Positions 1 to 32,000 are shown, numbered from the stretch's first letter. The stretch: DNA of 32,000 bases from Candidatus Saccharimonadota bacterium (GCA_963706795.1 OY970170.1:150001-182000), one strand, 5' to 3'. Program-made: numbers and translations. The notes: a model not told the origin generated them from the letters alone.

Positions 1-1626
1 AGAGACAAGATTACTCGTGTCATACCCATTTTTAGTCCAAGTTGTAGCCTGTGTATAGCAGCCTTGCAGTATACCGCCGTGAGTATTTCTAAAGAGGTCT
101 TCTTGTATAATCATTTGATTATCCTGCAAATGACCGAGTGCGGCTGCGATTTGATCGAGACGATTCTTAATATCTGTTACATCACCCTGGATTTGGTCCA
201 ATCTATCTAATACAATATCGAGTTTTTTATCTACACGATCAAAGCGCTCATGCATCTCTTTTTTAAGTTCGGAGATTTGTTTAGAGAGCTTTTCAAGCGC
301 AGCCATTATTTGCTTATGCCTCTCTCCAGCAGGATCAGGTTTTTTAGCAAAGAGTCCTACGAGATTTACAGCCGCGCTCACCATGTTCCCTGTTGCAATT
401 GAGCCAGCCATATCGCCTAATTTAAGCAGACTAATCGTCTCCATGACATTGACGAGATTGTCTGCGATGACCACTGCAGTTCAGATATCTCTTGCAGTCT
501 CCGAATTCCCAAAAAGCTGTCCAAGACCCCGTGCTATATTCAAATAGTTACGAGTCTCTTGGTAAACTTCTTTAATCTGCTGCTTTTGAAGCATGAATGC
601 CGCAGCAATAGCAGCTTCTTTTGCTTTAATGAGCACTTCTTGTTCAGCCTTTGCCTGTACATTTGTGAGCGTTTTGAGACCTTCGCGCATCACTTTTGCC
701 TGAGCAACTAAATCAGCAAGCGTTTGAGCTTGGTTTTTGAGCGCATCTGTATTTTTACCAATCTTTTCCTGCATTTTCTTATTTACTTCATACAGACCAT
801 CAGCCTTGTTGAGCAATAAGACAGTTGCTGGGTCCATGAAGCTCTTGTAATCAACCTTGGTGATATCTTTATCAATGAGCTGCTTTGTGAGAGCGCCAAG
901 TAATTTTTGCTGATCTTTAGAAAGTCTCTCAGGATGATTGATGAGCTCTTGAATAAGTGGCTTTCCGATGTTTTCTGCAAATTTCTGGAACTTAAAATTT
1001 GCCTCCTGGCGAAGCATGTCTTCATCAATTTGAGCGTCTGTTTGCAGCTCTGCGAAAGATGATCAAACCGGAGAGAATGTTGTACTATTAGAGGCAAGCA
1101 CGATGGCCTCTTTTATAACCGACGTATATCCTATCATTTTACCAATAATCGACTCCGCGAGAGGAAATGCCTGATTCGCCAATATCGCCTTAGAGACCAT
1201 CTCTGCTGTATAACTCTGTGGGAGATGAGAGATCACTTTTGCAATATCTCTATCAGATATTTTTTGGCCATCACTTCTTGCCACCATCTTAATATTACTG
1301 TCAGTTTTGAGCAGTGCGAAAACAAACTGCTCCATCTTTCAGCTATCGAGCAGGGCTTTATTCACGTAGTCAGCAGTAAGCTGTTTTTCCATTATTTGAC
1401 GCTTCTCTATCTCGCTCGCATTCGCAATCGAAGGACTCGTCACCACTGGAGTTGCCAGTGTTGGCTGCGACTCCGCTGGCGATGCAAATGTGAGTGCTGC
1501 AGCAACTACCGCCCCCTGAATAGCGCTCGAAATAGATTTTCCTTCTCTATTTTTTGATGTGGGTACAAAAAAATCCCTCACCCCAAGGTTGTTCTGCATA
1601 ATTCCAAAGATGAAAAAATACTTCAC
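1..1626 (-). CDS. Hypothetical secreted coiled-coil protein, partial (3' end lies beyond the window edge); 3 in-frame UGA(Gly)
   Basis: Track ORFs 1339..1626, 1063..1335 and 481..1017 share one minus-strand frame. They are separated only by TGA at 1339-1341, 1063-1065 and 481-483. The frame stays open from 480 down to base 1. A signal-like segment (AVVAAALTFASPAES) is followed by long Q/K/E/L-rich helical sequence. The start is GTG 1626 or ATG 1599; neither has an obvious SD. Confidence 0.6.
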
Positions 1627-1722
1627 TCAAATCCAAAGGAGGATGGATTACATAGTTCAAAATATTCAAAAAGATGAGATATTCAAGCATGATGAAGCCA
1701 TCTTTAAAAAAATCCCCACAGA

Positions 1723-1750
1723 TTGATTTTTATCCTCAAATTCATACGAT
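1723..1750 (+). promoter_or_regulatory. Candidate sigma70-like promoter, TTGATT-N16-TACGAT
   Basis: The hexamers sit at 1723-1728 and 1745-1750, upstream of the 1831 CDS. This would give a ~74-nt leader. Confidence 0.35.
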
Positions 1751-1830
1751 GTAGGCGTTCCGAAATAGTGGCCCGCAAATATATCAGTCACCCCGACTGA
1801 TACGATCTACTACAAAAAAAGGAGGAATAC

Positions 1831-2424
1831 ATGGTGCAAATATTCGCGGCTTTTCTGTTGATTGTTGGGTATTCTCTCATGCTTCGAGGACTCATATTGG
1901 GCCAAGAAAAATCGATCAACGGATTTAGCTTTTTAATCTGGGGTTCCCTGAGTCTCTGCCTCGGCCTCCTTGCCTCTCACGAAGCAAGCGTCGATCCAGT
2001 GATTCAGCGCTTCACTATAATTATGAGTCTCTTCCAGTACCTGATCGGTATCGTTAGTCTCTGGAAGCGACAATACAAAAAAATAAATACCTACGAAATA
2101 CTTGCCGTTGTCATTGCGGCTGGTACTATGACTCTCTGGTATATTTTGAGAGAGCAGGTCAGCTTCATATCTATGGGATGCATCATCGTGGCCGACATCT
2201 GCGCGATCATACCAAGCATTATCGAAGTCAAAAAATCCGAAAAAATCGGGAATGATTTTATCAAGAGTTTCGCACTCTTTGGTATCGTGGCGACGCTCGT
2301 AGTTCTCGGGCTCGAAACAAAAAACCTTCAAAGTCTGGCGTATCCCGTCTTTGAGGTGGTCGTCAACTTTGGCATTATGCTTTTTGCTCTATACCGAAGA
2401 TCTCACATCTTGAGACTTGCCTAG
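1831..2424 (+). CDS. Multi-pass membrane protein, possibly a 3+3 TM transporter-like fold; family not identified
   Basis: The ATG lies 5 nt after AAGGAGG. The 197-aa product has about six hydrophobic segments. Both halves end in a basic aromatic motif (SLWKRQYKK and ALYRRSH). TAG stop. Confidence 0.7.
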   Translation: MVQIFAAFLLIVGYSLMLRGLILGQEKSINGFSFLIWGSLSLCLGLLASHEASVDPVIQRFTIIMSLFQYLIGIVSLWKRQYKKINTYEILAVVIAAGTMTLWYILREQVSFISMGCIIVADICAIIPSIIEVKKSEKIGNDFIKSFALFGIVATLVVLGLETKNLQSLAYPVFEVVVNFGIMLFALYRRSHILRLA

Positions 2425-2450
2425 CAAAGTTTCATGAGTGACTCCTTATT

Positions 2451-2480: not shown

Positions 2481-2508
2481 AGTGAAGTACTCCCTGATAT
2501 GCCTTCTC

Positions 2509-2567: not shown

Positions 2568-3128
2568 ATGATCTCATTACATCTCGAGGAGATTGTGAGC
2601 TTTCCTCATGATATCTTCATAAAAATAAAAGTATATCTACATAGGCGTGCCTTTTTAGAATCCCTCGAAGCCGCATCTAAAAGCGATGATTTCGGCAACC
2701 TGGTACGTCAAGTTCGTGAAGCGAGAAGCAATCCAGACCTGATAGCCGTGAGAAATCATGCCGAATTACTCCTCAAAAATGCAGTCAAAAAAGAAGTAGA
2801 AACCTATGCTGCACTCAAACATGCAGGCAGGAAACAAATCCAACAAATCGTCTATTATGCAGTCAAAGAATGTCAGATAGACTGCACTATGGAAGAGCTG
2901 TTTCTCCTCTTGCTCAAAGCAGAGATGCAGGATACTCCAAATAAGGATTTCCTCAAAAGGCTGATGCTCCTTGCAAAAGAGCACAAGCTCCCAATCGCTC
3001 TCAAATTTGAGCAGATCATAGATCATATCTACGCTCAGGAAGCACTGCAGAGATCAATATCAACGCATTGATTCATAAACTACAATACCGGCTCACGAGC
3101 CGGTATTTTTTTGATGATATCTAGATAG
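2568..3128 (+). CDS. Hypothetical helical protein; 1 in-frame UGA near the 3' end
   Basis: The ATG lies 4 nt after AGGAGG. The code-11 ORF stops at TGA 3069-3071. Under code 25 the frame continues 19 codons to TAG 3126-3128, reading through the terminator hairpin. Confidence 0.6.
3085..3112 (+). terminator. Rho-independent terminator, embedded in the code-25 tail of the 2568 CDS
   Basis: ATACCGGCT-CACG-AGCCGGTAT is a perfect 9-bp stem followed by T7. Confidence 0.75.
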
Positions 3129-3142: not shown

Positions 3143-3679
3143 ATGCATTGCTTTTTATCATTTTCACCTACTATAGAGCCATCTTCACCCATTTTTACTA
3201 TGAAAGCTATCAGTGATTTTATTGATTCTATTGAACAGGCACTTCTCGGATCATGCAAAAATATGCCCGCATTCTCTCAGGGGGTTCAGGACTTTTTTGT
3301 AAAGATCATGCCTATTGTCGCCATTCTTACGGCAATCTCATACGGAATTACGGTCATTTCGATGGTTTCATTTTATATGCGCCTTAATGACACATATCAG
3401 TATTGGGGGTTATCAGCAGTTGGATATTTTAGTCCTATGGACTGGATCGGTACCGCGCTCGAATGTCTCGCGGTATACGCGGCAGTGATGGCATTTTCAG
3501 GACTTTCAAAGAATCTTTATGAAGGATGGAGATGGTTCTTTGTAGCCCAGATTACACTCGCGCTTTCGATGGTATTCCATGGACATCTTGCCGGACTTAT
3601 CGGTATTGCAATTGGTCTCTACATACTTTTTCAGATCCGCCCAAGATACACTGGAGAGCCAAAGTTAACAAATAAGTAA
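3143..3679 (+). CDS. Hypothetical membrane protein (3-4 TM)
   Basis: Open frame ending in TAA, with hydrophobic segments IMPIVAILTAISYGITVISMV, LECLAVYAAVMAF and GLIGIAIGLYILF. The start is uncertain (ATG 3143 or ATG 3200, MKAISDF). Confidence 0.55.
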   Translation: MHCFLSFSPTIEPSSPIFTMKAISDFIDSIEQALLGSCKNMPAFSQGVQDFFVKIMPIVAILTAISYGITVISMVSFYMRLNDTYQYWGLSAVGYFSPMDWIGTALECLAVYAAVMAFSGLSKNLYEGWRWFFVAQITLALSMVFHGHLAGLIGIAIGLYILFQIRPRYTGEPKLTNK

Positions 3680-3754: not shown

Positions 3755-5371
3755 ATGAAAAAAATCGTCACCTCTTTTGTGGTTGGGTGTGTGCTCATGA
3801 TGAGCCTCTCAATCCAAGCAGACGCAGCAAGCGTCTATCTCTCGCCCAAATACGAAACTATTGCTAACGCCTTTGTTAAAAAGGTGGTCGACGCAAAGTC
3901 TCAATACTCAGATGATGGAGACTATTACAATTTTGTCGTAGCCCTCGAAACTCAGCTCAAGGCATATCGAGCAAAGAATTACAGCAAGATCTCTGCACGT
4001 AATCTCTCAACTCGTATACTTGGTGATCTCGACAATATTCTTGCGCAGTACGATGCTGGCGGAGATGATATTAGTACGATTCTCTCAGGTATCACTGGTA
4101 CAAGCGGACTTGGAACTGGCTCAAGTGTAGCCATTGCTCCACCTCCAAGTTCTGGTACATCTGGTTCATCGACCACAGTTACACCACCTCCTGCTTCAGG
4201 AGTAAGTCCTGGACCTCAGAACAACAATGTCCCTGGTCCTGACAATGCAAGCGGAACCAAGTGGAGTGTATCAAGTACAGGAAACGGTGTTTGTACAAGT
4301 GCCGGTGGTGGTCAATATGCAACTGACAAACTCGCTACCAACAAATGTACTATTGGAGCTACAGTTTCTACTCGTACAAACTGTAGTGCAGGTGACGTAA
4401 CAAGCGGTGCCTCATATAGCTATACAAACTATGTATGTGCTGTAGACACAACTCCTGCACCAGGACCAGTAAAACAACAGCCAGCTGCAAATGCTACATT
4501 TAGCTGTAGCGCTAATCTTCCTGCAAATGCTGCATGGAGCTACTACGACTTTACCTATCTTGGAGACTCACTCCGTGATACATATGAAACTCTTCGTGGT
4601 AACAAGAAATTTGTCCTCGCAAACGGTGCTGTAACCTATGGAACAGCATTTGCCGGAGGTATCTACGGTGGTGATCTTGCACCATTTAGTTATGACGCAC
4701 TCACGGGCGGAGCTATTCCTACGTACACAACTGCTGCATCACGAACGGTGTATTATATTCCACAAGGTGGAGCAAACGCAACTACGAGATACGGCACACT
4801 CACAAACAACAAGGTAAAGGATCCATCAACTGGACGTGCGCCTTCTGATTATAACTATGCAAATCTTGCATGTGAATATACTTGTCAGAATGGTTATGCT
4901 TGGAATGGAAATGCATGTACATCTGCACTTGCTGTCAATCGTGCAGATACAACATATCCTGGTTGTGATAAGAAGGACGTCCAGATGGGAACAACAACTT
5001 GGGCACTCTGTGATGCAAATGGAACAGCTTCATCAACTATCTCAAAGGCCTCTGATAATATAGCTTATGCTGACCTTGGTTCACGAGATAAGTTTGATTC
5101 GGCTTCGATTTGTGCAGATGGATACCATCTCCCAACAAAAGCTGATGTACAGGCTTCGTATGCTGCATCAGGAAAGGATGGAGAATTCTTCACTCGATCA
5201 CTTCGCATGAATCTCCTCACAGACGGACGTGGGGCATACGGATATATTACTGCAGGCGGGGCTCCGTACTACACACAGTACGAAGAGACGATCTATGGGA
5301 AACGATACACTTTCAAAATCGATGACAATACTGGTACTGCCGGTCAGAAATACCGATGCGTAAAGAACTAA
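3755..5371 (+). CDS. Secreted Cys-rich protein with a G/S/T/P linker and a possible FISUMP-like C-terminal domain
   Basis: A signal peptide (MKKIVTSFVVGCVLMMSLSIQADA) is followed by a low-complexity PPPSSGTSGSSTT linker. The C-terminus resembles the Fibrobacter succinogenes major paralogous domain pattern (CADGYHLPTKADV ... YRCVKN). The protein also carries the cysteine motif CEYTCQNGYAWNGNAC. No UGA; TAA stop. Confidence 0.65.
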   Translation: MKKIVTSFVVGCVLMMSLSIQADAASVYLSPKYETIANAFVKKVVDAKSQYSDDGDYYNFVVALETQLKAYRAKNYSKISARNLSTRILGDLDNILAQYDAGGDDISTILSGITGTSGLGTGSSVAIAPPPSSGTSGSSTTVTPPPASGVSPGPQNNNVPGPDNASGTKWSVSSTGNGVCTSAGGGQYATDKLATNKCTIGATVSTRTNCSAGDVTSGASYSYTNYVCAVDTTPAPGPVKQQPAANATFSCSANLPANAAWSYYDFTYLGDSLRDTYETLRGNKKFVLANGAVTYGTAFAGGIYGGDLAPFSYDALTGGAIPTYTTAASRTVYYIPQGGANATTRYGTLTNNKVKDPSTGRAPSDYNYANLACEYTCQNGYAWNGNACTSALAVNRADTTYPGCDKKDVQMGTTTWALCDANGTASSTISKASDNIAYADLGSRDKFDSASICADGYHLPTKADVQASYAASGKDGEFFTRSLRMNLLTDGRGAYGYITAGGAPYYTQYEETIYGKRYTFKIDDNTGTAGQKYRCVKN

Positions 5372-5435: not shown

Positions 5436-5867
5436 TTAGATAGAGCTGCGGATCATCCATGCATTCTTTTCATGTTCGGCGAGCATTCCTGTGAGGAGAT
5501 CTGCACCAGCGGCATCATCTTGAGCCGTGAGGGTTTCGATTGCTTCACGAAGAACGATGATTGTCTCATCCGCAAATGAGAGAAGTGTAGTGAGAAGCAC
5601 GTCTCGTGATTCGGTACTAAAACTCGCATCTACTGCGTGAGAAACCGTCGGTGCAGGGAGATCAAAAACGCGGTATCGCTCTGCAATCTGATCAAGTGAA
5701 CTCCAGAGGTAGTTATATTGCCCCTCAAGCATGATATGCAGCTCATGGAAGTCTTTAGCGACAACATTCCAATGGCAGCTGTGGGTCTTGAAGTAAAGAT
5801 CATATACTGAACCAAATACGGTATCGAGGGTATGTTTAATTTTTTGAGTATCGAGTGTGTTTTTCAT
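5436..5867 (-). CDS. dps: Dps-family DNA-binding ferritin-like protein
   Basis: The 143-aa product has the Dps ferroxidase-region pattern (YFKTHSCHWNVVAKDFHELHIMLEGQY) and a four-helix-bundle-sized length. TAA stop. Confidence 0.85.
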   Translation of the reverse strand: MKNTLDTQKIKHTLDTVFGSVYDLYFKTHSCHWNVVAKDFHELHIMLEGQYNYLWSSLDQIAERYRVFDLPAPTVSHAVDASFSTESRDVLLTTLLSFADETIIVLREAIETLTAQDDAAGADLLTGMLAEHEKNAWMIRSSI

Positions 5868-6018: not shown

Positions 6019-6354
6019 ATGGCCATCGAACACAAAGAAGCGATTTCTCAGATCGAAAATCCTGCCGAAAAAGCCCGCGAGCAACTCGGCGCACTTCTTA
6101 AGATGATTGAGGGTTCTACAACCTTTGGAGAATACCACACCGCCAAAATCCACGATATCTATGGCAAATTTGAGAGCCTCAGCCCTTCCGAAAAAACAAA
6201 TATCGGATCAAAAGTAGCCGAATGAAGTCTTGGCGCTGTATCAACCGATACTGCGAGCCGAGCAAAAACTCAGCGAGAAATCGCACTGAGCGCTCAGGGA
6301 GACTATGACAAACGCAGCGCACTTCGTGGTCTGGACGAGCTCGCTTTTGCATAA
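6019..6354 (+). CDS. Small hypothetical protein (111 aa); 1 in-frame UGA
   Basis: The track ORF ends at TGA 6223-6225. The same frame continues to TAA 6352-6354, which overlaps the next ATG (TAATG). Confidence 0.55.
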
Positions 6355-6788
6355 TGGCTAACTATCAGTTCGAAATCCTCCTCAAAAATTCGGGCCTTTC
6401 GGCCGAATCAATGCACAATTTGTGGGTGATTTTTCCTGCGCTTTCAGACGAACGCAAGATCGAACTCATGGATAACTGGCCAGCACATCTCGATACATTC
6501 TTAAAAATTGAAAAGAAGGGTGTAGAAGAGCGCAAAAAGAATATCGAATCAGCACTCTCAAAAATTGAGTCCATTATCAATGATGCACTCGAACGAGATC
6601 GACAAAAAGCGCTTCAAGCAGACAAAAAACAACAGGAAACAGCTGAATGGAGCAAGGGTGCTGCTGCATTTGATAATCAATTACAGACACAAGAACAGCA
6701 AAAAAAGTTTGAAATGTTGCGCAATATCTGACGTACTATGTCCGACGACGCACCTTCTCCTCTCTTTGATCCGTTATGAAATCTGTAA
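6354..6788 (+). CDS. Small hypothetical charged helical protein (144 aa); 2 in-frame UGA
   Basis: The ATG at 6354 is coupled to the upstream stop. TGA codons occur at 6729-6731 and 6777-6779, and the frame ends at TAA 6786-6788. It overlaps the next CDS by 13 nt. Confidence 0.5.
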
Positions 6789-7082: not shown

Positions 7083-7436
7083 ATGACGAACGCAGCACTT
7101 ATCGCCGAAATTCAGAAGCCGTTTCTCAAGGCAGAAGTACCACAGGTCCGTACAGGAATGGAGGTAGAGGTTCACCAGACTATTAAGGACGGTGAAAAGA
7201 CTCGTATCCAGAAATTCCGAGGTCTCGTGATCCACACCCGTGGTAAGAGTGCACTCGAAAAGAACATCGTCGTTCGCAAGGACGTTGATGGTATCGGAGT
7301 AGAGAAGATTTTCGCGATTCACTCGCCGACGATCGTTAAGATCGACGTTCTTCGTTCCTTCAAGGTTCGTCGCAAGAACATCGCCTTTATTCGAGCCCTC
7401 AAGGGGAAGGCAGCACGCCTTCGAGAAGTTCGATAG
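7083..7436 (+). CDS. rplS: 50S ribosomal protein L19
   Basis: The 117-aa product matches the L19 pattern (VRTGMEVEVHQTIKDGEKTRIQKFRGLVI ... GIGVEKIFAIHSPTIVKIDV ... VRRKN). No UGA; TAG stop. Confidence 0.93.
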   Translation: MTNAALIAEIQKPFLKAEVPQVRTGMEVEVHQTIKDGEKTRIQKFRGLVIHTRGKSALEKNIVVRKDVDGIGVEKIFAIHSPTIVKIDVLRSFKVRRKNIAFIRALKGKAARLREVR

Positions 7437-7747: not shown

Positions 7748-9235
7748 ATGCTTTTTAGCGAAATCAAACTTCGTCCGAGTATTCAGGACGCACTTTCAAA
7801 AAGTGGATATTTAGAAGCTACGAAAATCCAAGAAGAAGTAATTACTTTTGCTCTTCAGGGTAAGAATATCGTTGGACAGTCTCAGACCGGAACCGGAAAG
7901 ACTGCCGCTTTTGTAATTCCCCTTCTTGAACTCATCGACTGCCGTCAGCGTAAGCCACAGGCAATCGTTCTTGCACCAACTCGTGAACTCGCGATCCAAA
8001 TCCGAGACGAAGTAGTAAAGCTCTCAGAAGGAATGTATCTCCGATCTACCGTTGTATATGGAGGTTCGAGCATGAAGAAACAGCGCGAAATTCTCGATAA
8101 GGGTCCACAGATCGTTATTGCTACTCCAGGTCGTCTCATTGACCTCGTTGATCGCCGATATATCGACCTCGCAGAAGTAAAATTCTTTGTTCTCGATGAA
8201 GTAGACCGCATGCTCGACATGGGATTCGTTGATGATATCGACTATCTCTGGGGTCACATGCCTGGAATTAAGCAGTCAATGACCTTCTCTGCTACGATCC
8301 CAATGGAGATGAAGAATCTCCTCGTAAAATACGTTGGTGAAGGATATGAGGCAATCAAGTCTACCCAGGAACTCACGGTTGATAAGATCGATCACTCATT
8401 TATCGAAGTAGAAACTTTCGACAAGTTCAATCTCCTTAAGAGCTATATCGAAGAACACGTTGGACAGAAGATCATCGTCTTCTCTCGAACAAAGCACGAA
8501 ACAGAACACCTCTCTCGCATGCTCCAGGAAGGAGGTGTGAAGGCAGGATGTCTCCATGGTGATATGGAACAGCGTCAGCGAACACGCGCACTTCAGGCAT
8601 TTAAGAATGATGAAGTAAATGTATTCGTTACAACGGACGTTGCAGCACGAGGACTCAATATGAACAATATTAATCTCGTACTCAATTACCACGTACCAGA
8701 AGATCCAGAGGCATACATCCATCGTATCGGTCGAACCGGTCGTGCTGGAGCTGAAGGAAAGGCAGTTATGTTCGTATCTGCTGCAGAACGTCTTCTCCTC
8801 AAGAATATTGAAAAGCGCAACAAGATCGTCATCCGACAGATCGACCGCGAAGGAAATACTCTCGAGCGTAAGGTAGAAGCTCCAAGTACTGGATTCGGAG
8901 GCGGAGGTCGCCGACGAGGAGGTGGAGGAGGCGGATACCGAGGAGGTCGTGGACGCGGAGGAAGCGGAAGTGGAGGCGGCTACGGTGGTGGTCGAAGCGG
9001 CGGAGGTGGAGGCTACAACAGTGGCGGAGCAGGAACCGGTGGATACAACCACGGTGGAGGTGACCGACCAGCTTCAACTGGAGGTGGTGGAAATGGTGGA
9101 CGTGGAGGTTACCAGGGTGGTGGACGATCAGATGCTGGCCGAAGTGCTGGAGGTGATCGCAATCCAAACTTTGGAAATGACCGCCCACACCGCGCTCCAC
9201 GCCAAGGAGGTGGAAGCGAGTACAGCGTATTCTAA
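7748..9235 (+). CDS. DEAD-box ATP-dependent RNA helicase with a C-terminal Gly/Arg/Tyr-rich (RGG-like) tail
   Basis: It has the Q motif (TKIQ), Walker A (SQTGTGKTAAF), motif II as DEVD (VLDEVDRMLDMGF), SAT, and HRIGRTGRAG. The last ~115 aa are GGGRRRGGGGGGYRGGRGRGG-type low complexity. No UGA despite the very high Gly content. Confidence 0.92.
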   Translation: MLFSEIKLRPSIQDALSKSGYLEATKIQEEVITFALQGKNIVGQSQTGTGKTAAFVIPLLELIDCRQRKPQAIVLAPTRELAIQIRDEVVKLSEGMYLRSTVVYGGSSMKKQREILDKGPQIVIATPGRLIDLVDRRYIDLAEVKFFVLDEVDRMLDMGFVDDIDYLWGHMPGIKQSMTFSATIPMEMKNLLVKYVGEGYEAIKSTQELTVDKIDHSFIEVETFDKFNLLKSYIEEHVGQKIIVFSRTKHETEHLSRMLQEGGVKAGCLHGDMEQRQRTRALQAFKNDEVNVFVTTDVAARGLNMNNINLVLNYHVPEDPEAYIHRIGRTGRAGAEGKAVMFVSAAERLLLKNIEKRNKIVIRQIDREGNTLERKVEAPSTGFGGGGRRRGGGGGGYRGGRGRGGSGSGGGYGGGRSGGGGGYNSGGAGTGGYNHGGGDRPASTGGGGNGGRGGYQGGGRSDAGRSAGGDRNPNFGNDRPHRAPRQGGGSEYSVF

Positions 9236-19495: not shown

Positions 19496-19540
19496 AAATA
19501 CTTATTTAAAAACTATTTAAATAAGTATTTATTTTTATAT
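19496..19540 (+). terminator. AT-rich perfect 15-bp hairpin after recR, a likely terminator
   Basis: AAATACTTATTTAAA-AACTA-TTTAAATAAGTATTT is followed by ATTTTTAT. Confidence 0.55.
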
Positions 19541-19584
19541 AAGAGTCCCTATACTTACAGGGTTTATATCGTAACAATCACCGT

Positions 19585-20001: not shown

Positions 20002-20010
20002 AATTCTCAT

Positions 20011-20052
20011 CACAAATAAAGCACCCAAACGCTCTTGGGTGCTTTATTTGTG
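20011..20052 (+). terminator. Terminator hairpin with a perfect 18-bp stem
   Basis: CACAAATAAAGCACCCAA-ACGCTC-TTGGGTGCTTTATTTGTG. Confidence 0.7.
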
Positions 20053-20114
20053 AGTTGACAAAAATAGTATTTGATTAGATTTATATACGATCAACAAATA
20101 TAGGAGGAATGATC

Positions 20115-20642: not shown

Positions 20643-20656
20643 CAAGGTCAGACTTC

Positions 20657-20686
20657 AAAAAAGAGCAGCTTGCGCTGCTCTTTTTC
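20657..20686. terminator. Bidirectional terminator between the lipoprotein (+) and the SLH gene (-)
   Basis: AAAAAAGAGCAGC-TTGC-GCTGCTCTTTTT. Confidence 0.8.
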
Positions 20687-20699
20687 CTTGTCTTATAAT

Positions 20700-21644: not shown

Positions 21645-21663
21645 AAGATATCTAAAGTAAGGG

Positions 21664-21689
21664 AAAAAGCCGGATTAATCCGGCTTTTT
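21664..21689 (-). terminator. Hairpin terminator between the giant surface gene and the SLH gene
   Basis: AAAAAGCCGGA-TTAA-TCCGGCTTTTT is a symmetric hairpin. A U-run follows it on the minus-strand transcript. Confidence 0.7.
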
Positions 21690-21693
21690 TAAA

Positions 21694-24600
21694 TTATTGT
21701 GTCTGAATTCCGTAACTTGTGGAGTAGGCTCCAGCAGCTCCGGTAGGGATCTTATAGAAAAGATCAATCGTAAATTGTCGTCCACCAGTATTTACATCCG
21801 CATCGAATGCACTAATGCTGACATTCGTTCCATACGCATTCGTCACATCAACGGCTGATCCTGATGCTGTTGCGTAATCCGCTACACCATCCTGAGATAC
21901 TACCATCTTTGTGTTTCCTGCGATAGCAAGCGTACCGACAGTATTTGACCAATCAGCGAGCTTGAGCGATGCCCCAGTCTCTGTGAGTGAGTTGGCAGTG
22001 ACATTAAATCTAAAGTGGTATCCATTGGTGAAGTCACCCGCAACTACTGGAGTTCCATGAGGAATTCGAGCAATCGAATTTACCACGATTCCTGTGTTTG
22101 CTGCAGCCGTCTTAAAGGCCATTGGTACTGAATTTACCGTCTGTCCGTTTGCAGTAAATCGAACCTGATAGTAATACGTCGTATTTGCCGCGAGTCCAGC
22201 AACTGCTGCCGGAGACGCCGCGAGCGTTACCCATGAACCTGAGTATGCAAGGGTTGAGATGCGATACTGACTCGTTGTAGGTAAAACATCGGTTGTATAA
22301 CTGATCACTGCACCCGTGTTTGTAACACTACCAATAGAGAGTCCAGTAATATCTGGAGCTGATGCAGACTGTGTTGTGAAGTAAATCTCTCGTGATTCAG
22401 TTACGAGATTATTTGTTGCATCCTTCACTGCATTTGGCTGAATTGTGATGCGGTATGTAGTGTTGTACTCGAGAGTTCCATATCCAACTTGGATATTATT
22501 CCCTGATACGACAGCAGTACCAACCTTCACGCTTGAAGAGTCAGAAACCTTCTGGATGAGTACCTTTGTCTCATCGGCCATAACGAGAGCTTCGTTATAG
22601 AGAATAGTTCCAGTTCCTGCTGTTACTGAGACACTCGTCGCAGCATTCGAAGGAGCAGAAGAAACAAATACGGGAGCTGAAGCATCAGCCGGAGTATCGG
22701 CATTTACTTGGTACGAAATCGTGAGATTTGCTGTCGTGCTCGTACTCGAAGTGACAATGATGTTATATGTATGTACTCCAATACTCGTCGCTCCAGAGAG
22801 TGTATCAATAGCTACCGTTGCAGCAGGCGCCACTGGAGTTCCATTTACTGTCATGCTCGCAGCATTCGTCGTATCGATCTGAAGTCCAGAACCAAATCGT
22901 GCTGCTGCTGCAGTCGCAGAGTATGCTGAGAGAATCGCAGCACCATTGAGGACGACGGTTGGAGTAATTGTTCCAGAGCCAACAACTACTACACCATTGG
23001 CGAGCGTCCAGTTTCCTGCATTATCCTGAACCTTTGCAATGAAGTTATGTGTTCCTGCAGCGAGATTTGCATCCGTATAGGTCACAGTAAGCGAAGTTGC
23101 TGTTGGGCGAGCTACTGAGGTCTTCAGATCACTCTTTACATCATTTCCGTCGAGTGTGAATTCGATAACGTTTGAAAGCGCAGTCGAATTAAACAGCATA
23201 TTGTCCGCGAATGTGAATACTACCGGAGCTACTGCCGCTACTGTCTGAGCTCCTGCTGGAGTGATACTCATCGTAGTTGGTGCAGTTGTATCGGCAATAG
23301 TTGTAAACTCGTGAGCTGTCTTATTTGTGCTGTCATAGGCTACCGCAAAGGCATTGCCAACGACATCCGTCACGCTCGTATTTACTGCGAAGTAATACTG
23401 AGTTCCTGGCGTGAGATTGTCAGCCGGAGTGAGCGTAACTGTTTGATTGCTGTTTGAGAAAGCACATGTAGCAGCTATCACAGAGTCGTCACTATATTTC
23501 TTGAGCTGAACGTTATTACATCCAACACTGACGCTTCCAGTAGCAATAGGCTCGCTAAAGGTGATAGCTGGAGCAGTTGTTACTGCAACACTTGTCGCAT
23601 TGTCGAGTGGACTGAGTGTAGAAACTGTTGGCGCAGTACTGTCGATCGTAAAGGCAAGATCCGAAATATCATTTGCGGTATTCCCTGCCTGATCAGTAAT
23701 CGTTACTCGCACCTTTGCAGTATTTACATTACTCATTGGAATAGTCCATGCATAGGTTCCATCATTTGCTTCGTTGTTGATAGTTACCGAATCCGTGAAA
23801 TCTCCGAGTGCAGAATAGTCGATGGTCATTGGAGTCGCTCCAAGGTGAGCATCAGTTCCACCTGTCCATGTAATGTTATATCCCGCACCTCCCTTGAGTT
23901 TCTCTCCACCATTTGGAGTGAGAACTGTAGGAGCTGTTGGAGCAGTATTATCTACTGTAACTGTAGCTGTCGAGGCAGTAGAGATATTGCCTGCAGCATC
24001 AATAACAAAGAGATTGTATACACCCTCAGTTGCTGGAGCGAGAATCGTCGTAGCAACTCCATTTGTTGCCTTCGTCATGGTAGCACCTGCAACGAATGTC
24101 GTTGTTCCGCTTGCTGCGAGCCAGACATCATTTGATGCCGTTCCAGAAGTCACAATCGTTACTGAAGCTCCGCCCTGTTTAATAACAGAAGCGGCAAGTA
24201 CTGTATCCTGATTTGTTGGTGCAGTATTATCAGTATTGAGCTGACCTACGAGGTGATATCCAATATTCCCTGCGTTGTCTGCTGCAGTGACACAGAGATA
24301 ATCAGTGTGATCACCCGCAATCGTAAAGTTTGTACCACCTGTAAATGCTGTACCGTAGGTATCAGTCACGTCACAAGTATTGTCAGCACTAAATCCATAT
24401 GCAACCGTCGATGCCTTCACACCAGAGATAGCATCTGAGAGGGTAACATTGATAGTATCAGTCTTCACTGGACCAGCTGCCGTAGCATCTACGTCCGTAA
24501 ATCCTGGTGCTGTATTGTCGATCGAGAATGTATTATTTACTGGCGTGGCAGTGACTACATTTCCTGCTGCGTCCTCTCCAGTTGAGAGCGTAACAGTTGC

Positions 24601-26811
24601 TGTAGCGATATCACCAGCAGGTACGTTGAGATCGTATGTATAATGCGTTGTGTCCACCTTTGTCATGTTTGTAGCCGCAAGAACTGCATTATTGACAGCA
24701 ACCTGCACAATTGGCGCATCCTCAATTGGTTCATTGAAGTTTGCAATAATTCGAAGTGTATCCGCATCTTTTACACCAATGGTTGTACCAGTACTTGTTC
24801 CACCATCTTTTGAATAATAGAGAGTTGCTACTGGTGAAGTGCTATCAACTGTGAGCGTCGCAGTTGAAGCACTTGAGATATTACCCGCAGCATCAAGTAC
24901 GAAGAGCTTGTATGCACCTTCAGTTGCTGGAGCAAGAATAGCGGTCGAAGTTCCATCCGTTGCCTTTGTCATGGTAGCACCCGCAACAAATGTCGTGGTT
25001 CCGCTTGGGGCAAACCATACATTATTTGTTACATCACCCGAGCTGACAATCGTTACAGAAGCTCCTGACTGTTTTGAAACCGAAGCCGCAAAGACAGTAT
25101 TTTGGTTGGTTGGAGCAGTATTATCCGTATTAAGCTGACCAACGAGTTGGTACGCGATATTCCCTGCATTGTCGACAGCCTTCGCACAGAGATAGTCCGT
25201 GTGATCTCCCGCAACTGTGAAGTTCACTCCTCCTGTAAATGCTGTACCGTACGTATCAGTGATATCACAGGTATTATCTGCGCTAAATCCATATGCCGCA
25301 GTACTTGCATTAACACCTGATGTAACATCAGAGAGTGCTAGATTGATCGTATCTGATTTTACTGGACCCGCATCCGTGCCGCTCGTCACTCCAATAACTG
25401 GAGCAACTTGGTCAACCATGAGGGCGCCAGCAGTATTATTAGCGTCCATAACATTACCTGCAAGATCGGTTGTACCAGAGACTTTGATTGCCCCTGAACC
25501 ATCCGTAAATCCGGTAACATCCACGGTTCCCACCCAAGTATTAGCTGAGTTGTCATATCCGTTATTGGTATGAGTACCGTCAACGAGAGCAGTTACTGCA
25601 TGGTCCGCACCATCATTAAATTGAATAGTCGGAGCCACCATTTTATTGATGCCAGAACCTGCCTCAGTAAATGTAACAGTCACCGTAACATTTCCCGCCT
25701 TTGCAGGACTTGGACTTGCCGTTGCTGTAGCAACTACTGGCTTAGTCGTATCCACTACAAAAGTCGTAAGAGTGAGAGGTGAAGACTCATTTCCTGCTTC
25801 ATCCAAGAATGTTGCAGTAAAATTTGCGACACTTCCATCTGGAATAGTGGTAAGAGTGACTGTATTATTTCCCATCGCAGGACTATTGACTGTCTGGAAG
25901 AGAATACCTCCACTATAGACCTTGATCGACTGTCCGCTTGCTTCGGCAACATTGATCACAACGTCTGGAGTATTGTCTGTAGTAGGTGTTGTTACTGGTG
26001 TTGTCTCAGTCGGAGTAGCTGGTGGAGTATTATCAACTGTGAGCCACCCTGGCACAATGCTCGAGACATTACCTGCAGGATCGACAGCAACGATGTCATA
26101 GACACCATCATTGAGACTTGCAGCGAGTGTTACAGTATACGGAGTTGCAGCAGCAGCTCCTGATTTACCAAGGAATGCATTATTTGCAGTAACCGCCGCA
26201 TCGATATTTGCCTGAGAAGCCGCGGCAACGCCGTTTTTCACAAGGTAGATATTTGCGCCTTCGTTCGCCTGAACGGTAGAAGTCGATGTCGATCCACTCT
26301 TGAGGCGCTGAGCCGTATTTGTCGGAGCAGACGCAACAGGAACGGTATTGTCGATAATTACATCGCTGTATGCGGTAGTATTTACGATCGTACCTCCTTT
26401 ATTGAGTCGGAACTGATAATCTGTGTCATCCGTAGTCTGACCAGCTGTTGAGTCAAAGTTTACAGAAGTTGAGCTTGGGAGGGCTGAGGTCGCAATGGTT
26501 ACCCAGCTGCTTCCACCATCGTGGGATGCCTGGACATCAAAAACTGCGGGATCTGTGGTTGTACAATCAATGCCATTGAAGGCCCAAGCTACAGATACCG
26601 TAATTCCTCTTTTTGCACTGCCTGACGCAGGGCTTGTAATCGTCGCATCTCACGCATTACATGTTCCATCGCTCATTGCCGCATTTGCAGTGGAAACCAA
26701 TCCTGGCAACCCAACAAATACCTGAGACGAAATAATTGTAATAACCGAGAGAATAGCCAGAAACTTGCGTTCCAAGCTGGATTCCCCCCTCCTTCTCGTA
26801 ATCGATTTCAT
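21694..26811 (-). CDS. Giant secreted cell-surface protein (1705 aa) built from Ig-like, SbsA_Ig/Big_5-like and FN3 domains; 1 in-frame UGA
   Basis: The frame of track ORF 21694..26241 stays open upstream through TGA 26650-26652 to ATG 26811. An alternative start is TTG 26775, after an internal AGGAGG. The signal peptide reads FLAILSVITIISSQVFVGLPGLVSTANA. Domain junctions of the form [VI]D-x-T-x-P recur (VDNTPP, VDTTKP, VDQVAP, VDSTSP, IDNTAP, VDNTAP, IDSTAP) with D-x-AGN motifs. There are two SbsA_Ig-like units (about 23317-23616 and 22372-22662) and an FN3-like unit (about 22108-22359). No SLH, LPXTG or TM anchor is visible. TAA stop. Confidence 0.85.
23938..24477 (-). repeat. Intragenic duplication, copy B (~180 aa)
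   Basis: AGPVKTDTINVTLSDAISGV ... VTVDNTAP. The similarity to copy A is also visible at nucleotide level. Confidence 0.8.
24835..25371 (-). repeat. Intragenic duplication, copy A (~179 aa)
   Basis: AGPVKSDTINLALSDVTSGV ... LTVDSTSP. By eye, about four-fifths of residues are identical to copy B, which lies 894 nt downstream in the gene. Confidence 0.8.
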
Positions 26812-26954
26812 AGGTGAAAATAAAAAAGTACTACTTTTACTTACTTCACCTCCTTAGCTCCGTGGCGGACAAAGGTACGATTATGTTCTGGAAGTCCGAT
26901 CACGGGAGATACGAAGGTTCCTTCTAACTTCAGAGGATAGATGAAAAAAAACGA

Positions 26955-27051: not shown

Positions 27052-27738
27052 TTATTTTACATCGATGCGTACGCTTGGCCCCATAGTGTTGCAAACGTAT
27101 ACAGTATTGATGTAGCTTCCACCCTTTACACCTGAAGGCTTAATTTCGCGCATTGTCTTGATGAAGTGTGCGAGATTTTCCTTGAGCTTTGCTCCTCCGA
27201 ATGAGAGCTTACCAGCGATTGAGTGGAGATTTCCCTGCTTGTCGTTCTTGATTTCGAACTTACCAGCCACGAGCTCTTTGGTAATCTTGATGAGATCTTC
27301 ACCAACAGTACCCGCCTTTGGATTTGGCATAAGACCCTTTGGTCCGAGAACCTTAGCAACCTTACCCATCTTCTTCATCATTCCTGGAGTAGCGATGGCA
27401 ACATCGAATTCTACCTTACCAGTTGAAACAACTTCGACGAGATCATCTCCTCCGACTACCGTAACTCCGAGAGCAAGGAGCTCCTTTTCATTACCTGCGT
27501 CAGTGAAGGCTCCGATACGAACTGCTCGACCACTTCCGTGTGGAAGATTGATAGTTGTACGGATCATCTGGTCAGACTGCTTTGGATCAATTGCGAGATT
27601 GAAATGAATCTCAACAGTTGGATCGAATTTTACAGTATTTGTACGCTCGAGGAGCTCTACAGCTTCGTCGAGAGTATAGATACGATTTGCTTCGATGAGT
27701 GCAACCGCCTGGTTGTACTTTTTTCCGTGTTGTGCCAT
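27052..27738 (-). CDS. rplA: 50S ribosomal protein L1
   Basis: The 228-aa product matches the L1 pattern (KFDPTVEIHFNLAIDPKQSDQMIRTTINLPHGSG ... FDVAIATPGMMKKMGKVAKVLGPKGLMPNPKAGTV). No UGA; TAA stop. Confidence 0.93.
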   Translation of the reverse strand: MAQHGKKYNQAVALIEANRIYTLDEAVELLERTNTVKFDPTVEIHFNLAIDPKQSDQMIRTTINLPHGSGRAVRIGAFTDAGNEKELLALGVTVVGGDDLVEVVSTGKVEFDVAIATPGMMKKMGKVAKVLGPKGLMPNPKAGTVGEDLIKITKELVAGKFEIKNDKQGNLHSIAGKLSFGGAKLKENLAHFIKTMREIKPSGVKGGSYINTVYVCNTMGPSVRIDVK

Positions 27739-27855: not shown

Positions 27856-28725
27856 CTACTTAAGATACTTATCAAAATAGGTCGGCTTAGACTCTGGATA
27901 GACGCGAATACGGTTCGTATCGAGGTGATCAGTACTCTCTGCCCAAGACTTCCCAAACGAAGTCGAGAATCCGAGTGAATAACCACATTCCTTCTCGATT
28001 TTTGTGGAGAATCCGGACATTCGCCCTGCTGGAAAAATGAAGGTAGAAACAGGTTTTTGAGTGATACTTTCGAGTGTTTTTTTGGAATCACACATTTCTT
28101 CGTGCTCGATTTTTTCGCTGACGATATCGAGATCGACATGCGAAATGCTGTGCGATGCTATCGTAAAGAGCGGATCTTGTGAGAGGACGCGGACTTCGTT
28201 TTCGGTCACAAATCAGGCGGTTGCAAGTTTGGATGTGATCACTCCAAACGTAAATGGAATCTGATATTTGCGCGCAATCGGAGCAAGCGCGGTATAGCTA
28301 TCAATCCAGCCATCATCCGAGATAAATACAAAGATTTCTTTATTTGGGAAGCAGTGATTAGTCGTGTCTTTAATGAGTTCATCGGTGCTTATCACCGCAA
28401 CTTTACCAGCATCTACAAGTGCACGAACATGCTCCATATGCGATTCAAAGACCTTGGGTGCGACGGACAATTGTACGATCACCTTTGCGTCCTGAGGAAT
28501 CGGATCGCGGATATAGTGGTACATAAATACCGAGACATTCGCGCCTGAAAAACATGCGGAAATCATTGGTGGATTATGTAAATCAGATGTCGAATTTTGA
28601 GTACTCTTTTGAAAATCTGGAATCTGCAGCTTCGAAAAATCAAAATGTGGAAATATATACAAAGCGAAGGCTCAAAAAAACACTCCCAATAGGAATATCG
28701 AGAGTGTTTTGATCCAGTTGTGCAT
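27856..28725 (-). CDS. Polysaccharide deacetylase (NodB homology domain) with an N-terminal TM anchor; 2 in-frame UGA
   Basis: Track ORFs 28213..28662 and 27856..28209 share one frame, joined by TGA 28213-28215. The frame extends upstream through TGA 28672-28674 to ATG 28725 (MHNWIKTLSIFLLGVFF[UGA]AFALYIF). NodB-like motifs are VFISDDGWIDSY, ASHSISHVDL and FIFPAGR. TAG stop. The ATG lies 3 nt after the pheS TAA. Confidence 0.75.
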
Positions 28726-28728
28726 ATT

Positions 28729-29751
28729 TTAGAACTGACTGAGGAAGGCGAGATTGGGATTTTGGAAATAGCGCATATCGGTAATACCGTAGCGGATCAT
28801 TACGAGACGATTGAGTCCAAAACCAAAGGCAAAGCCCGTGTATTCATTTGGATCGAGACCACCTTCACGGATGACATTTGGATGGATGAGACCAGCGCCC
28901 ATAAATTCGATCCAACCAGTGTGTTTACAGATTTTACACCCCTTCCCTTCACAAAAAGTACATGAGAAGTCGACCTCAACTCCTGGCTCGACGAATGGGA
29001 AATATCCTGGACGAATGCGGATTGCAACTTCGTGATCAAAGATGTCCGAGAGCATCGTTCGGATCGTATATTTCATGTGCGCAAGCGAAATCTGCTTGTC
29101 AACGACGATTCCTTCTACTTGGTAGAATGTATTTTCGTGAGTAGCGTCGATATCTTCGTTACGGAACACACGTCCTGGGATAATCGTCCGAATTGGAAGT
29201 GAGTGTGACTTGAGGATATGGTTCTGCATGCTCGAGGTCTGGGTCGCGAGCACATTTGCCTCACCTTCGATCCAAAATGTATCCTGCATATCGCGCGCTG
29301 GATGGTTCTTTGGGACATTTACTGCGTCGAAATTCTCGTATTCAGTGGTTACTTCGTTGGATTCCTGGATATCAAATCCCATGCGTTTGAACGAATCCTC
29401 GACTTCGCGAAGAACCTGGCTGATTGGGTGCAAATGACCAATCGGAGGTTCAGGATTTGGAAAGGTAACATCGATGTATTCCTGCGCGAGCTTTGCAGCA
29501 ATGAGGGCTTCGGAGAGAGCTGCAGATCGGACATCAAAAGCAGTAACGATCGCCTCTTTAATCTCATTGGAAGATTTTCAGATGGTTTGTTTTTCTTCGA
29601 GAGAGAGATCCTTGATGCCTTTGAGAACTTCAGTAAGTTCACCATTCTTCCCGAGAATGGAGTTTTTGTATGCGACAAGAGTGTCATCATCCTGTACTGA
29701 GGGGAGATGAGTGAGAACTTTGTCTTTGAGCGATATGAGTGTTGCGAGCAT
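28729..29751 (-). CDS. pheS: Phenylalanine--tRNA ligase alpha subunit; 1 in-frame UGA
   Basis: The frame of track ORF 28729..29433 continues upstream through TGA 29578-29580 to ATG 29751. The sequence reads LSLEEKQTI[UGA]KSSNEIK, GHLHPISQV, NHPARDMQDTF, then the class II core (FRNEDIDATHENTFYQVEG, GAGLIHPNV, GFAFGFGLNRL). The restored length is 340 aa. Confidence 0.92.
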
Positions 29752-29922
29752 GATGATTACTTAATTCTGTTTTTTAGATTTTTCTAAACCTAACCCAAAG
29801 GTCCCAAAACTGCAAAGAGCGAAGATATTTGCGCGAAACGCGAGCACCGCAGTAAGGTGTAGCGGCAGCTACTCCGCACGAGGCGCACAGCGATGAGCAC
29901 AAAGATCAAAGCTATATGCAGT

Positions 29923-31038
29923 TTATATCTTCAAAGGCATTATGATGTGCTTATAGGACTGCTTAGAATCCTCGGCCGGTACTGCCTGTACCATGATTGG
30001 GGAGAGACTCGTCTCGAAGTCGAGACTTACGTAGTCGTCACGGATGACAGAGAGTACTTCGAGGAGATATGTTGCATTGAGACCGACGGTCGTGTCTTCT
30101 CATTCGATCGATGCAGGAATCGTGATACGTCCTGCTCCGATCTCGGTATCACCAGTAAAGAGCTCAATACCGGACTCAGCACGGAATGCCATGCGGGTAT
30201 TGTAGTTATTTTCGCGAGTGATGAGATTCATCCGCTTGAGACCTTGGATAAGATCAGTGCGGAGGATGACACCCTTGGTCGAATATCCCTTTGGGAAAAA
30301 GTTACGATAGTCTGGGAAGTGTCCGTTGAGGAGACGAGAATAGACTTTGATATTGCCAAATACTACGAGGAGCTGATTTTCGCTCGCATAGAGTTCGGCA
30401 TCACCGGATTCTGGTAGGATGCGTGCAAGCTCCATCGCAGTCTTGGATGGGATGATGATCGAGAGTGGTGGATGATTGATCTCAGCCTTGAGAACGTATT
30501 CAGAGAGACGGAAGCTGTCAGTTGAGGCAAATACTATTCCGTCCTCTCGGATTTGGAGACAGATACCGGCGAGGGTTGGCCGGATGTTTCCTTCAGCTGT
30601 GGAGAAAATCGTGCGTTCGATCGAGCGCTTAAGAGAAGCAGCTGGGATACGAAGTGGCTCATTTACCTGAAATCCTGGGATAACTGGAAATTTTGAAGCT
30701 TCGATTCCTTTTACTTTAGTGAGTGATGTAGGCGTAGTGAACTCAAGAGATCCGCCATCGACGAGAGCAACGCTGATGCGATCATCTGATACCAGCGAGA
30801 GAAATGATGAGATAAATCTCGAAGATACCGTAAAGCTTCATTCTGATGCGATTTCGATTTTGTCATCGAGCACATATTCGATTGCCATTTCGAGATTGTT
30901 CGCCGTCAAAATCGCTTTTTTGTAAGCGACAGTGAGAAGAATATTCTCAAGAATTGGTGTCATGCCGCCAGAAGAACTAGCGTGGCTCACGATATCAATT
31001 CCCGATTTGAGAATCGAGGTATCTGTTGTAAATCGCAT
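29923..31038 (-). CDS. dnaN: DNA polymerase III beta sliding clamp; 2 in-frame UGA
   Basis: Track ORFs 30838..31038 and 30100..30435 share one frame that is open throughout if TGA 30838-30840 and 30100-30102 are read as sense. The sequence includes PILENILLTV, RPTLAGICLQ, ASTDSFRLSEY, LNATYLLEVL and the C-terminus YKHIIMPLKI. The restored length is 371 aa; TAA stop at 29923-29925. Confidence 0.9.
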
Positions 31039-31166
31039 ATGCTCAGGAAAACGCGAGAAGTATGGGCAAAATCTACAAAAAACGAGCCGAAAAGCAAGGA
31101 GGAATTATTTTTTTGTATTTCTGAGAAATGTGCCTATAGTTCAGGAAAACATTCCCCATTACCGCT

Positions 31167-31640
31167 ATGAATCGAATCTTTGAAAAAAGTTCTGGCGGCA
31201 TCGTCTATCGAAAACGAAATGGCAATATCGATGTCCTCCTTCTGGAGCGCAAAAACGGCAAAGGCGACCGAGAATATGTCCTCCCAAAAGGACGCATGGA
31301 AGAAGCTGAAACCGCCAAAGACACCGCCCTTCGTGAAATCGGTGAAGAGACCTGACTCGAGCTCGAATACCTCGAAATCGTCAAATTCATGACCAAAATC
31401 AATTACAGTTTCATTGCGACACATAAGGACGGCAATCCTGTAGTTGATAAGGACGTCTATCTCTTCCTCGTTCGATATACAGGCTCCAAAGAACCCACTC
31501 CGTTCGGTATGAACGACCCGACGATTACGACTGGTGAACGCTTCAGCTGAGCCAAATGGCTCTCGCTCGATGCGCTGGCAAAAGTCCACGTAAAACCCGA
31601 CATCCTCTCTTTCGTCCGAAAAAATATCCAATACATGTAA
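31167..31640 (+). CDS. Nudix hydrolase; 2 in-frame UGA
   Basis: SSGGIVYRKRNGNIDVLLLER ... LPKGRMEEAETAKDTALREIGEET[UGA]L contains the Nudix box G-x5-E-x7-R-E-x2-E-E-x-G, with the final invariant Gly encoded by TGA 31353-31355. A second TGA is at 31548-31550. The product is 157 aa; TAA stop at 31638-31640. Confidence 0.85.
31353..31355 (+). other. Diagnostic UGA=Gly codon in the Nudix box
   Basis: R-E-I-G-E-E-T-TGA-L corresponds to R-E-x-x-E-E-x-G-U. Confidence 0.85.
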
Positions 31641-31645
31641 ATTTT

Positions 31646-32000
31646 ATGGAAATCATCGAACAAAATTCACACATCGAAATTGCATCTGAAAAGAAAATCA
31701 TCGTCCTTGAAGGTCAGACTATTAACGTAGATGGACTCAAGATCGACTTTCCTGGTGAATATGAGAAATCAGGATTTCTCATTCATGCGATCGAAATCGG
31801 CGAATCTCTCGTCTATGAACTCCGCATCGAAGGTAAGGTTATCGCCTATCTTTCAGAAACTGTAAAAGAAACCAGCGAAGAACTCAGCGGATTTTTTCAA
31901 AATCTCGATATCCTCGTACTTGCAGGATCCAAGGAATCTACCAAGATATCAGAATTCCTCGATGCCCGCATCGTCGTAGCTTACGGAGAAGGAAAAGAAA
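31646..32000 (+). CDS. Hypothetical protein, partial (runs off the window)
   Basis: The frame is open from ATG 31646 to the window end (MEIIEQNSHIEIASEKKIIVLEGQTINVDGLKIDFPGEYEKSGF...). It is not in the ORF track, presumably because no stop codon is reached. It has a weak resemblance to small beta-lactamase-fold hydrolase C-termini; I am not confident in that. Confidence 0.45.
   Translation, partial: MEIIEQNSHIEIASEKKIIVLEGQTINVDGLKIDFPGEYEKSGFLIHAIEIGESLVYELRIEGKVIAYLSETVKETSEELSGFFQNLDILVLAGSKESTKISEFLDARIVVAYGEGKE

Follow-up and report, generated by a model that had tools for sequence, protein, structure and literature searches.

Comparative evidence that UGA is read as glycine in a 32-kb window of bacterial DNA

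Reading frames of the window

We analysed the meaning of the codon TGA (UGA in the messenger RNA) in a stretch of 32,000 nucleotides of bacterial DNA, OY970170.1:150001-182000 of assembly GCA_963706795.1, which is called the window here and whose positions are counted from its first letter. Alignment with homologous loci indicates that UGA is almost certainly a glycine codon in this window. An earlier sequence-only reading had claimed that the window is written in genetic code 25 (UGA = glycine), and our results bear this out: the genes are interrupted in frame by 35 TGAs but by neither TAA nor TAG, and TGA was found opposite Gly and never opposite Trp.

When TAA and TAG alone were taken as stops, 27 closely packed coding sequences (CDS) covered 91.8% of the window, the GC content of which is 44.7%. 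The 35 in-frame TGAs are spread over 15 of the 27 CDS, and TAA or TAG is present inside none of them. The sequence-only reading had counted 16 genes with TGA out of 29; its statement that only TGA interrupts genes was reproduced, while its count was not, because the calls of genes and of start codons differ, several TGAs being a short distance upstream of where L19, RsmH, the helicase and other genes probably start. All 25 complete CDS terminate with TAA (19) or TAG (6), as it had reported, and the other two CDS are partial. Glycine is encoded by 35 TGA versus 707 GGN codons, which corresponds to a TGA share of about 4.7%.

Coverage of the window by open reading frames (ORFs) of at least 150 amino acids increased from 78% under code 11 to 98% when TGA was read through, whereas freeing TAA or TAG in place of TGA gave a coverage of just 86-88%. 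Two of the loci described below served as controls: L009 (WTXA01000001.1, "Fusobacteria bacterium", 31% GC) had a coverage of 93% under code 11, which is the behaviour of the standard code, and L011, a Spiroplasma locus from the RsmH search, went from 51% to 91%, which is the signature expected of code 4. Pfam matches were continuous over the TGAs and extended up to the ends of the profiles for RsmH (2-309 of 309) and for the core of PheS (2-246 of 246); TGAs were also crossed by the matches to the RecR Toprim domain, the DnaN domains, LytR-CpsA-Psr (LCP), Nudix, polysaccharide deacetylase and ResIII/Helicase_C. Since Pfam matches pass over the TGAs and extend to the limits of the profiles, the TGA pattern is not an artefact of the way in which ORFs were defined. 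The presence of housekeeping genes shows that the window belongs to a cellular chromosome and not to a phage.

Residues opposite TGA in homologous loci

With RsmH as the anchor, 80 loci were obtained from a scan that covered one genome for each GTDB species; the ten closest of them (L001-L009 and L012) were used for the comparison of codons. A dnaN-anchored scan of metagenome contigs gave another 80 loci. Comparison with the ten genome relatives showed that the TGAs of the window were opposite Gly in 40 cases, TGA in 16 and other residues in 15, while comparison with the 80 metagenome relatives gave 107 Gly, 89 TGA and 2 other residues. When the relative had a codon other than TGA, Gly was found in 40 of 55 and in 107 of 109 comparisons, respectively. 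In the reverse direction, the TGAs of the relatives were opposite a Gly of the window in 114 of 192 (genomes) and 475 of 769 (metagenomes) comparisons. Pooling both sets gave 147 Gly and 105 TGA opposite the TGAs of the window and about 590 Gly in the reverse direction, with no Trp in either direction and in either set; Cys was also never opposite TGA in any genome or metagenome comparison. The residue opposite in-frame TGAs in homologues, which the sequence-only reading had proposed as a check of its claim, was mainly Gly or TGA.

The log-likelihood of the meaning of TGA, obtained with substitution profiles derived from the same alignments, was best for Gly (-65), followed by Ser (-168), and was -243 for Trp. 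The alignment profile of TGA (56% G and 23% TGA) resembled that of the GGN codons (57-74% G and 9-12% TGA). TGG was opposite W in 75% of cases and was exchanged with TGG, TAT or TTT and never with TGA. For every codon other than TGA, the residue most frequently aligned in the ten genome relatives was that of its standard meaning, and by this comparison no codon besides TGA looks reassigned. The reassignment of CGA and CGG to Trp, an additional change reported for Absconditabacteria (PMC8629427), was considered and rejected, as CGA (n = 98) was aligned with R in 61% and CGG (n = 15) in 74% of cases, with no Trp signal.

In-frame TGA codons of individual genes

The CDS of the window and the positions of their in-frame TGAs are the following.

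1-1599, minus strand: coiled-coil protein, function not assigned, running past the left end of the window; TGAs 1339, 1063 and 481; no orthologue recovered
1831-2424, plus strand: CDS without TGA
2568-3128, plus strand: hypothetical protein; TGA 3069; no orthologue recovered
3143-3679, plus strand: CDS without TGA
3755-5371, plus strand: CDS without TGA
5436-5867, minus strand: Dps/ferritin, without TGA
6019-6354, plus strand: hypothetical protein; TGA 6223
6354-6788, plus strand: hypothetical protein; TGAs 6729 and 6777
7083-7436, plus strand: ribosomal protein L19, without TGA
7748-9235, plus strand: DEAD-box helicase, without TGA
9331-11922, plus strand: superfamily 2 (SF2) helicase (ResIII, Helicase_C); TGAs 9352, 9655, 10300, 10588, 10708, 10768, 11371, 11401, 11548 and 11779
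11946-15278, minus strand: class A penicillin-binding protein (PBP; transglycosylase and transpeptidase); TGAs 13818 and 12324
15281-16738, minus strand: LCP family protein; TGAs 16583 and 16322
17006-17941, plus strand: RsmH (16S rRNA m4C1402 methyltransferase), 311 amino acids; TGA 17108
17948-18313, plus strand: CDS without TGA
18315-18914, plus strand: ferric-reductase-like membrane protein, without TGA
18898-19488, plus strand: RecR, 196 amino acids; TGAs 19219, 19300 and 19342
19585-20001, plus strand: CDS without TGA
20109-20642, plus strand: CDS without TGA
20700-21644, minus strand: secreted protein with three S-layer homology (SLH) domains; TGAs 21408 and 21369
21694-26811, minus strand: surface protein of 1705 amino acids with bacterial Ig-like (Big_5) domains; TGA 26650
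27052-27738, minus strand: ribosomal protein L1, without TGA
27856-28725, minus strand: polysaccharide deacetylase; TGAs 28672 and 28213
28729-29751, minus strand: PheS (phenylalanyl-tRNA synthetase alpha subunit), 340 amino acids; TGA 29578
29923-31038, minus strand: DnaN (sliding clamp), 371 amino acids; TGAs 30838 and 30100
31167-31640, plus strand: Nudix hydrolase; TGAs 31353 and 31548
31646-31999, plus strand: partial CDS without TGA

The lengths of RsmH, RecR, PheS and DnaN are those that the sequence-only reading had given for the restored proteins, and the seven positions that it had quoted (17108, 19219, 19342, 10588, 31353, 29578 and 16322) are all true in-frame TGAs. It had placed these seven on invariant glycines of known motifs. 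To read each site, TGA was translated as X and the residue of the homologue at the same column was recorded. The motif glycine was found for RsmH, RecR 19342, PheS, motif VI of the SF2 helicase and the Nudix box (G or D in solved homologues). Gly is not invariant at RecR 19219 and LCP 16322, the solved homologues of which have His and D or S, respectively. Among the TGA sites of the window are Gly positions of catalytic or structural motifs.

TGA 17108 of rsmH is located in the SAM-binding motif D-A-T-L-TGA-I-G-G-H-S, at a position occupied by Gly in all three solved homologues. This motif was found in 77 of the 80 RsmH-anchored loci, which represent many phyla, and the column contained Gly in 74 of them and TGA in the remaining three, every one of which is of the Gracilibacteria type. 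TGA 19342 of recR, in the Toprim motif NP-x-I-E-G-E-A-T, was opposite Gly in a homologue from the PDB and in seven relatives, and opposite TGA in one relative. Gly was present at position 19219 in all eight relatives, while the solved chains (three chains that are variants of one sequence) have His. The third TGA of this gene, 19300, is located in a variable column (S, N, E, D, Q), with Ser in solved RecR. TGA 29578 of pheS was opposite Gly in five of five solved homologues, two of two genome relatives and 12 of 13 metagenome relatives, the 13th having TGA.

In the metagenome relatives, TGA 30838 of dnaN was opposite Gly in 48 and TGA in 32 cases, and every solved chain that was read has Gly; TGA 30100 was opposite TGA in 45, Gly in 32 and K in one, and four solved chains, two of which are the same clamp, have G, G, G and V. 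In the Nudix box (E-E-T-TGA-L, 31353), the relatives have G or TGA, with a single N, and at position 31548 they have G or TGA. The relatives have G, G, S and three TGAs at position 16322 of the LCP gene. For the class A PBP, position 13818 is Gly in five relatives and TGA in L012, and position 12324 is G, G, A, a gap and TGA among relatives; solved structures have P, P, T and G at the PBP site, which is in a variable linker. In the polysaccharide deacetylase, TGA 28672 is matched by TGA in L001, and N, A and G are found among relatives at position 28213. TGA 6223 of the hypothetical protein at 6019-6354 corresponds to ACA (Thr) in the L001 orthologue, at a variable position.

The protein encoded at 6354-6788 ends with a conserved motif, EMLRNI-TGA-R...PLFDPL-TGA-NL, followed by the stop codon. 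Both TGAs (6729 and 6777), and the sequence that follows each of them, are kept in L001, although the overall identity of these proteins is no more than about 49%. The conservation of PLFDPL-TGA-NL-stop in L001 argues for translation through and beyond TGA in this gene. The SLH protein contains TGA, 12 GGN codons and TGA at positions 21369-21410 of the minus strand, which corresponds to the 14-residue Gly run capped by UGA at both ends that the sequence-only reading had described.

TGA 10588, in motif VI of the SF2 helicase, was opposite Gly in PDB entry 7clg and in 21 of 23 homologues and opposite W in the other two, and the columns of TGAs 9655 and 10768 contain G or W among the homologues. 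We read the W at the latter two columns as TGA mistranslated with code 4. Many of the public entries among the helicase homologues (P0001-P0022) contain 3-6% Trp and 1-2% Gly and have W where others have G, as in motif VI (GR-W-LR); to judge from these sequences, many of them look as if they had been translated by code 4 in place of code 25. The strong homologues of the helicase that have a source name are labelled Gracilibacteria or Absconditabacteria.

Decoding of UGA

A tRNA gene with the anticodon UCA was found in two of the dnaN-anchored relatives, L101 (8644-8722, minus strand) and L105 (18171-18249, minus strand). The DnaN proteins of these relatives are 49-50% identical to that of the window, and their own dnaN genes contain in-frame TGA. 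The tRNA gene, which is 79 nucleotides long and located a few kb from dnaN, scored 41.9 bits against the Rfam tRNA model (RF00005), which it matches, and not tRNA-Sec. Its anticodon loop, CUUCAAC, gives the anticodon UCA, and it has G1:C72, C2:G71, G3:C70 and the discriminator U73, which are the exact glycine identity criteria of Shulgina and Eddy (PMC8629427). ARAGORN labelled it "tRNA-SeC"; its D-loop is unusually long, so that position 37 is the first of the anticodon, and the gene includes the CCA end. No tRNA genes were found in the loci of the ten RsmH-anchored relatives. A search with the GGQHVN motif found no release factor in loci L001-L009, L012 and L081-L160, a result that is uninformative for whole genomes, and the window, which covers 32 kb and not the whole genome, contained no release-factor gene.

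We propose that the window is a piece of the chromosome of a Gracilibacteria-type bacterium belonging to the Candidate Phyla Radiation (CPR; Patescibacteria) that uses translation table 25, in which UGA is a Gly sense codon and termination depends on UAA and UAG alone. UGA would be decoded by a dedicated tRNA-Gly that has UCA as its anticodon, as the literature and the tRNA of the two relatives suggest, and release factor 2 would have been lost, as the literature suggests (10.64898/2026.05.24.727570), so that termination would not occur at UGA. UGG would remain a Trp codon, and the remaining codons would keep their standard meaning.

Alternative explanations

Several observations weigh against this interpretation. 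In about one quarter of the comparisons without TGA, the TGAs of the window face a residue that is not Gly (N, S, A, E, D, Q and others), a share that is no worse than that of the usual GGN codons at variable positions. The comparison with homologues covers the 35 TGAs with the exception of seven (the three of the coiled-coil protein, 3069, the two of the SLH protein and 26650), and no tRNA gene was found in the window. The peptide-level proof of Gly at UGA is from another BD1-5 bacterium, in which proteomics gave 97 peptides that were exclusive to the database with UGA = Gly, versus 3 for UGA = Trp (PMC4032931).

The decoding of UGA as tryptophan (code 4) is known from the Mycoplasmatales, from some endosymbionts of insects and from a few further lineages. 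It affects the same codon and restores the same long ORFs as code 25, and the Spiroplasma locus L011 shows under code 11 the ORF fragmentation that any reassignment of UGA gives. Many database homologues of the SF2 helicase also have W at TGA columns; however, their composition looks like the result of code-4 mistranslation and not like true Trp. What distinguishes the window from the users of table 4 (Mycoplasmatales, Hodgkinia, Zinderia, Nasuia, Stammera and others) is the amino acid, as Trp was opposite TGA in 0 of 55 and 0 of 192 comparisons with genomes and in 0 of 198 and 0 of 769 comparisons with metagenomes. The log-likelihood of Trp is 178 units below that of Gly, and TGG, with W opposite it in three quarters of cases, is not exchanged with TGA. 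Code 4 is excluded because Trp is wholly absent at the TGA columns of these alignments, and we consider it extremely improbable. We also regard as very unlikely a dual or ambiguous UGA, which would mostly encode Gly and still end translation of certain genes or in certain contexts, or be misread at a low level. TGA is present near the annotated end of two hypothetical genes (3069, 19 codons before the stop, and 6777, three codons before it), and rare non-Gly peptides at UGA were found in a BD1-5 bacterium by Hanke et al. (PMC4032931). However, no gene of the window requires a TGA stop, all complete CDS ending in TAA or TAG, the Pfam profiles end at the C-termini set by these two codons, and both the NL and stop that follow TGA 6777 and the stretch between the two TGAs of that gene are conserved in L001.

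Under the standard code, to which we attach a negligible probability, the TGAs would be true stops due to pseudogenes or to assembly or sequencing errors, or would be selenocysteine sites. The genes do appear fragmented under code 11, and the label given by ARAGORN to the tRNA(UCA) of the relatives would agree with selenocysteine. Nevertheless, only one of the three stop codons interrupts genes, the frame never shifts, TGA is found at the same codon in relatives in 16 (genomes) and 89 (metagenomes) cases, and essential genes are affected (pheS, dnaN, rsmH, recR and the class A PBP gene), which together exclude pseudogenes and sequencing errors. Selenocysteine sites are rare, occur in particular selenoprotein families, are aligned with Cys and depend on a selenocysteine insertion sequence (SECIS) element. 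The in-frame UGA and, here in relatives, a tRNA with the anticodon UCA are common to both situations, but the window has 35 sites in 15 ordinary genes; selenocysteine is excluded because these sites, in ordinary families, match Gly and never Cys. The tRNA(UCA) of the relatives is of the ordinary type, fitting the ordinary tRNA model with Gly identity elements and not the architecture of a Sec-tRNA.

Code 25 agrees with these observations, and nothing essential distinguishes the window from the users of table 25 (Gracilibacteria BD1-5/GN02 and Absconditabacteria SR1). UGA opposite Gly, stops limited to UAA and UAG, UGG as Trp and a position in the CPR/Patescibacteria are shared, the GC content of the window is inside the reported range of 0.21-0.53, and the tRNA(UCA) of the relatives has Gly identity elements. 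TGA is a minor Gly codon in the window and is heavily used in some low-GC relatives, such as L012. Table 25 of Gracilibacteria and Absconditabacteria was reportedly described by Campbell 2013 and by Rinke 2013, and is also covered by Hanke 2014 (PMC4032931) and by Shulgina and Eddy 2021 (PMC8629427).

Lineage and relatives

The closest locus, L001, is from a metagenome-assembled genome labelled "Patescibacteria group bacterium"; over most of the window it has the same gene order, with protein identities of 63-98%. Exact look-ups of the L1, L19 and Dps proteins and a scan of metagenome contigs for exact 42-mers gave no match, and the contig appears to belong to a species that is absent from the collections covered. 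The nearest named relatives are Candidatus Gracilibacteria (L005-L008), with identities of 46-53% for RsmH and 68% for L1. The public labels of the window and of L001-L004 are only "Patescibacteria group bacterium" or "bacterium". UGA = Gly has been reported for Absconditabacteria and Gracilibacteria alone (PMC8629427; 10.64898/2026.05.24.727570), in agreement with the limits that the sequence-only reading had given for this code; table 25 was first reported in 2013 and is today the default assumption for the GTDB class JAEDAM01 (PMC8629427; 10.64898/2026.05.24.727570). It is unlikely that the window and the relatives closest to it (L001-L004, 44-56% GC) represent a code-25 lineage outside Absconditabacterales and BD1-5, the two orders recognised so far as users of this code, and that, in addition, the SF2 helicase gene at 9331-11922 is transferred horizontally between genomes with code 25 or between the phages of such genomes.

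L012 (CAYWJC010000123.1, "uncultured Candidatus Peribacteria bacterium") has a GC content of 26.7%. It contains no ORF of at least 150 amino acids under code 11, its ORF coverage is 89% when TGA is read through, and it has TGA at five of the TGA columns of the window. Either the lineage label or the genetic code implied by this record looks wrong.

Uneven use of TGA and variable regions

The SF2 helicase gene contains 10 of the 35 TGAs of the window, and TGA represents 10 of its 62 Gly codons (16%) compared with 3.5% elsewhere (binomial P = 5e-4). The per-gene table behind this comparison totals 33 TGA and 682 GGN codons, which is slightly below the full totals of 35 and 707 since genes with the same label were merged. 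In the DEAD-box helicase gene all 80 Gly codons are GGN and none is TGA (P = 0.02, given the average TGA share of the window), and TGA is also absent from both ribosomal protein genes and from the Dps gene; highly expressed genes may avoid UGA. The last 130 or so amino acids of the DEAD-box helicase form a tail that is rich in Gly and Arg (RGG-like).

The C-terminus of the SF2 helicase consists of four repeats of about 75 amino acids with the pattern ...EDFFFNYAG...W.NP......FRAFI.WLF. The matching site of L001 is without this gene and has another ORF of 834 nucleotides (about 278 codons) between the DEAD-box and PBP1a genes. A role of the SF2 helicase in defence was considered and rejected, as the similarity to PbeA and to Type IV restriction helicases that PADLOC reported was only weak and of a generic SF2 kind.

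A block of four genes at about 19500-26900 is missing from L001, where recR directly precedes the L1 gene. It encodes a membrane protein, a lipoprotein, the SLH protein with the 14-residue Gly run and the Ig-like surface protein of 1705 amino acids, and looks like a variable cell-surface island. Scans of the window gave no Rfam match at the gathering threshold, no tandem repeats, and promoter and terminator signals at the background level.

Implications

Annotation of the window with code 11 would be badly wrong, as the sequence-only reading had warned: 15 of the 27 genes would be cut short or broken up, including pheS, dnaN, rsmH, recR and the class A PBP gene. Falling back on code 4 would introduce Trp in place of Gly, often within catalytic motifs, and if the helicase homologues were translated by code 4, public protein collections contain systematic Gly-to-Trp errors. 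If the helicase is mobile, its UGA content would block its expression in standard-code hosts. The code is already known and is expected for this lineage, so that knowledge of the code itself is unchanged and the value of the finding is in correct annotation. The recognition of code 25 from just 32 kb of sequence would also assign the contig to a lineage of the CPR with small, host-dependent bacteria.

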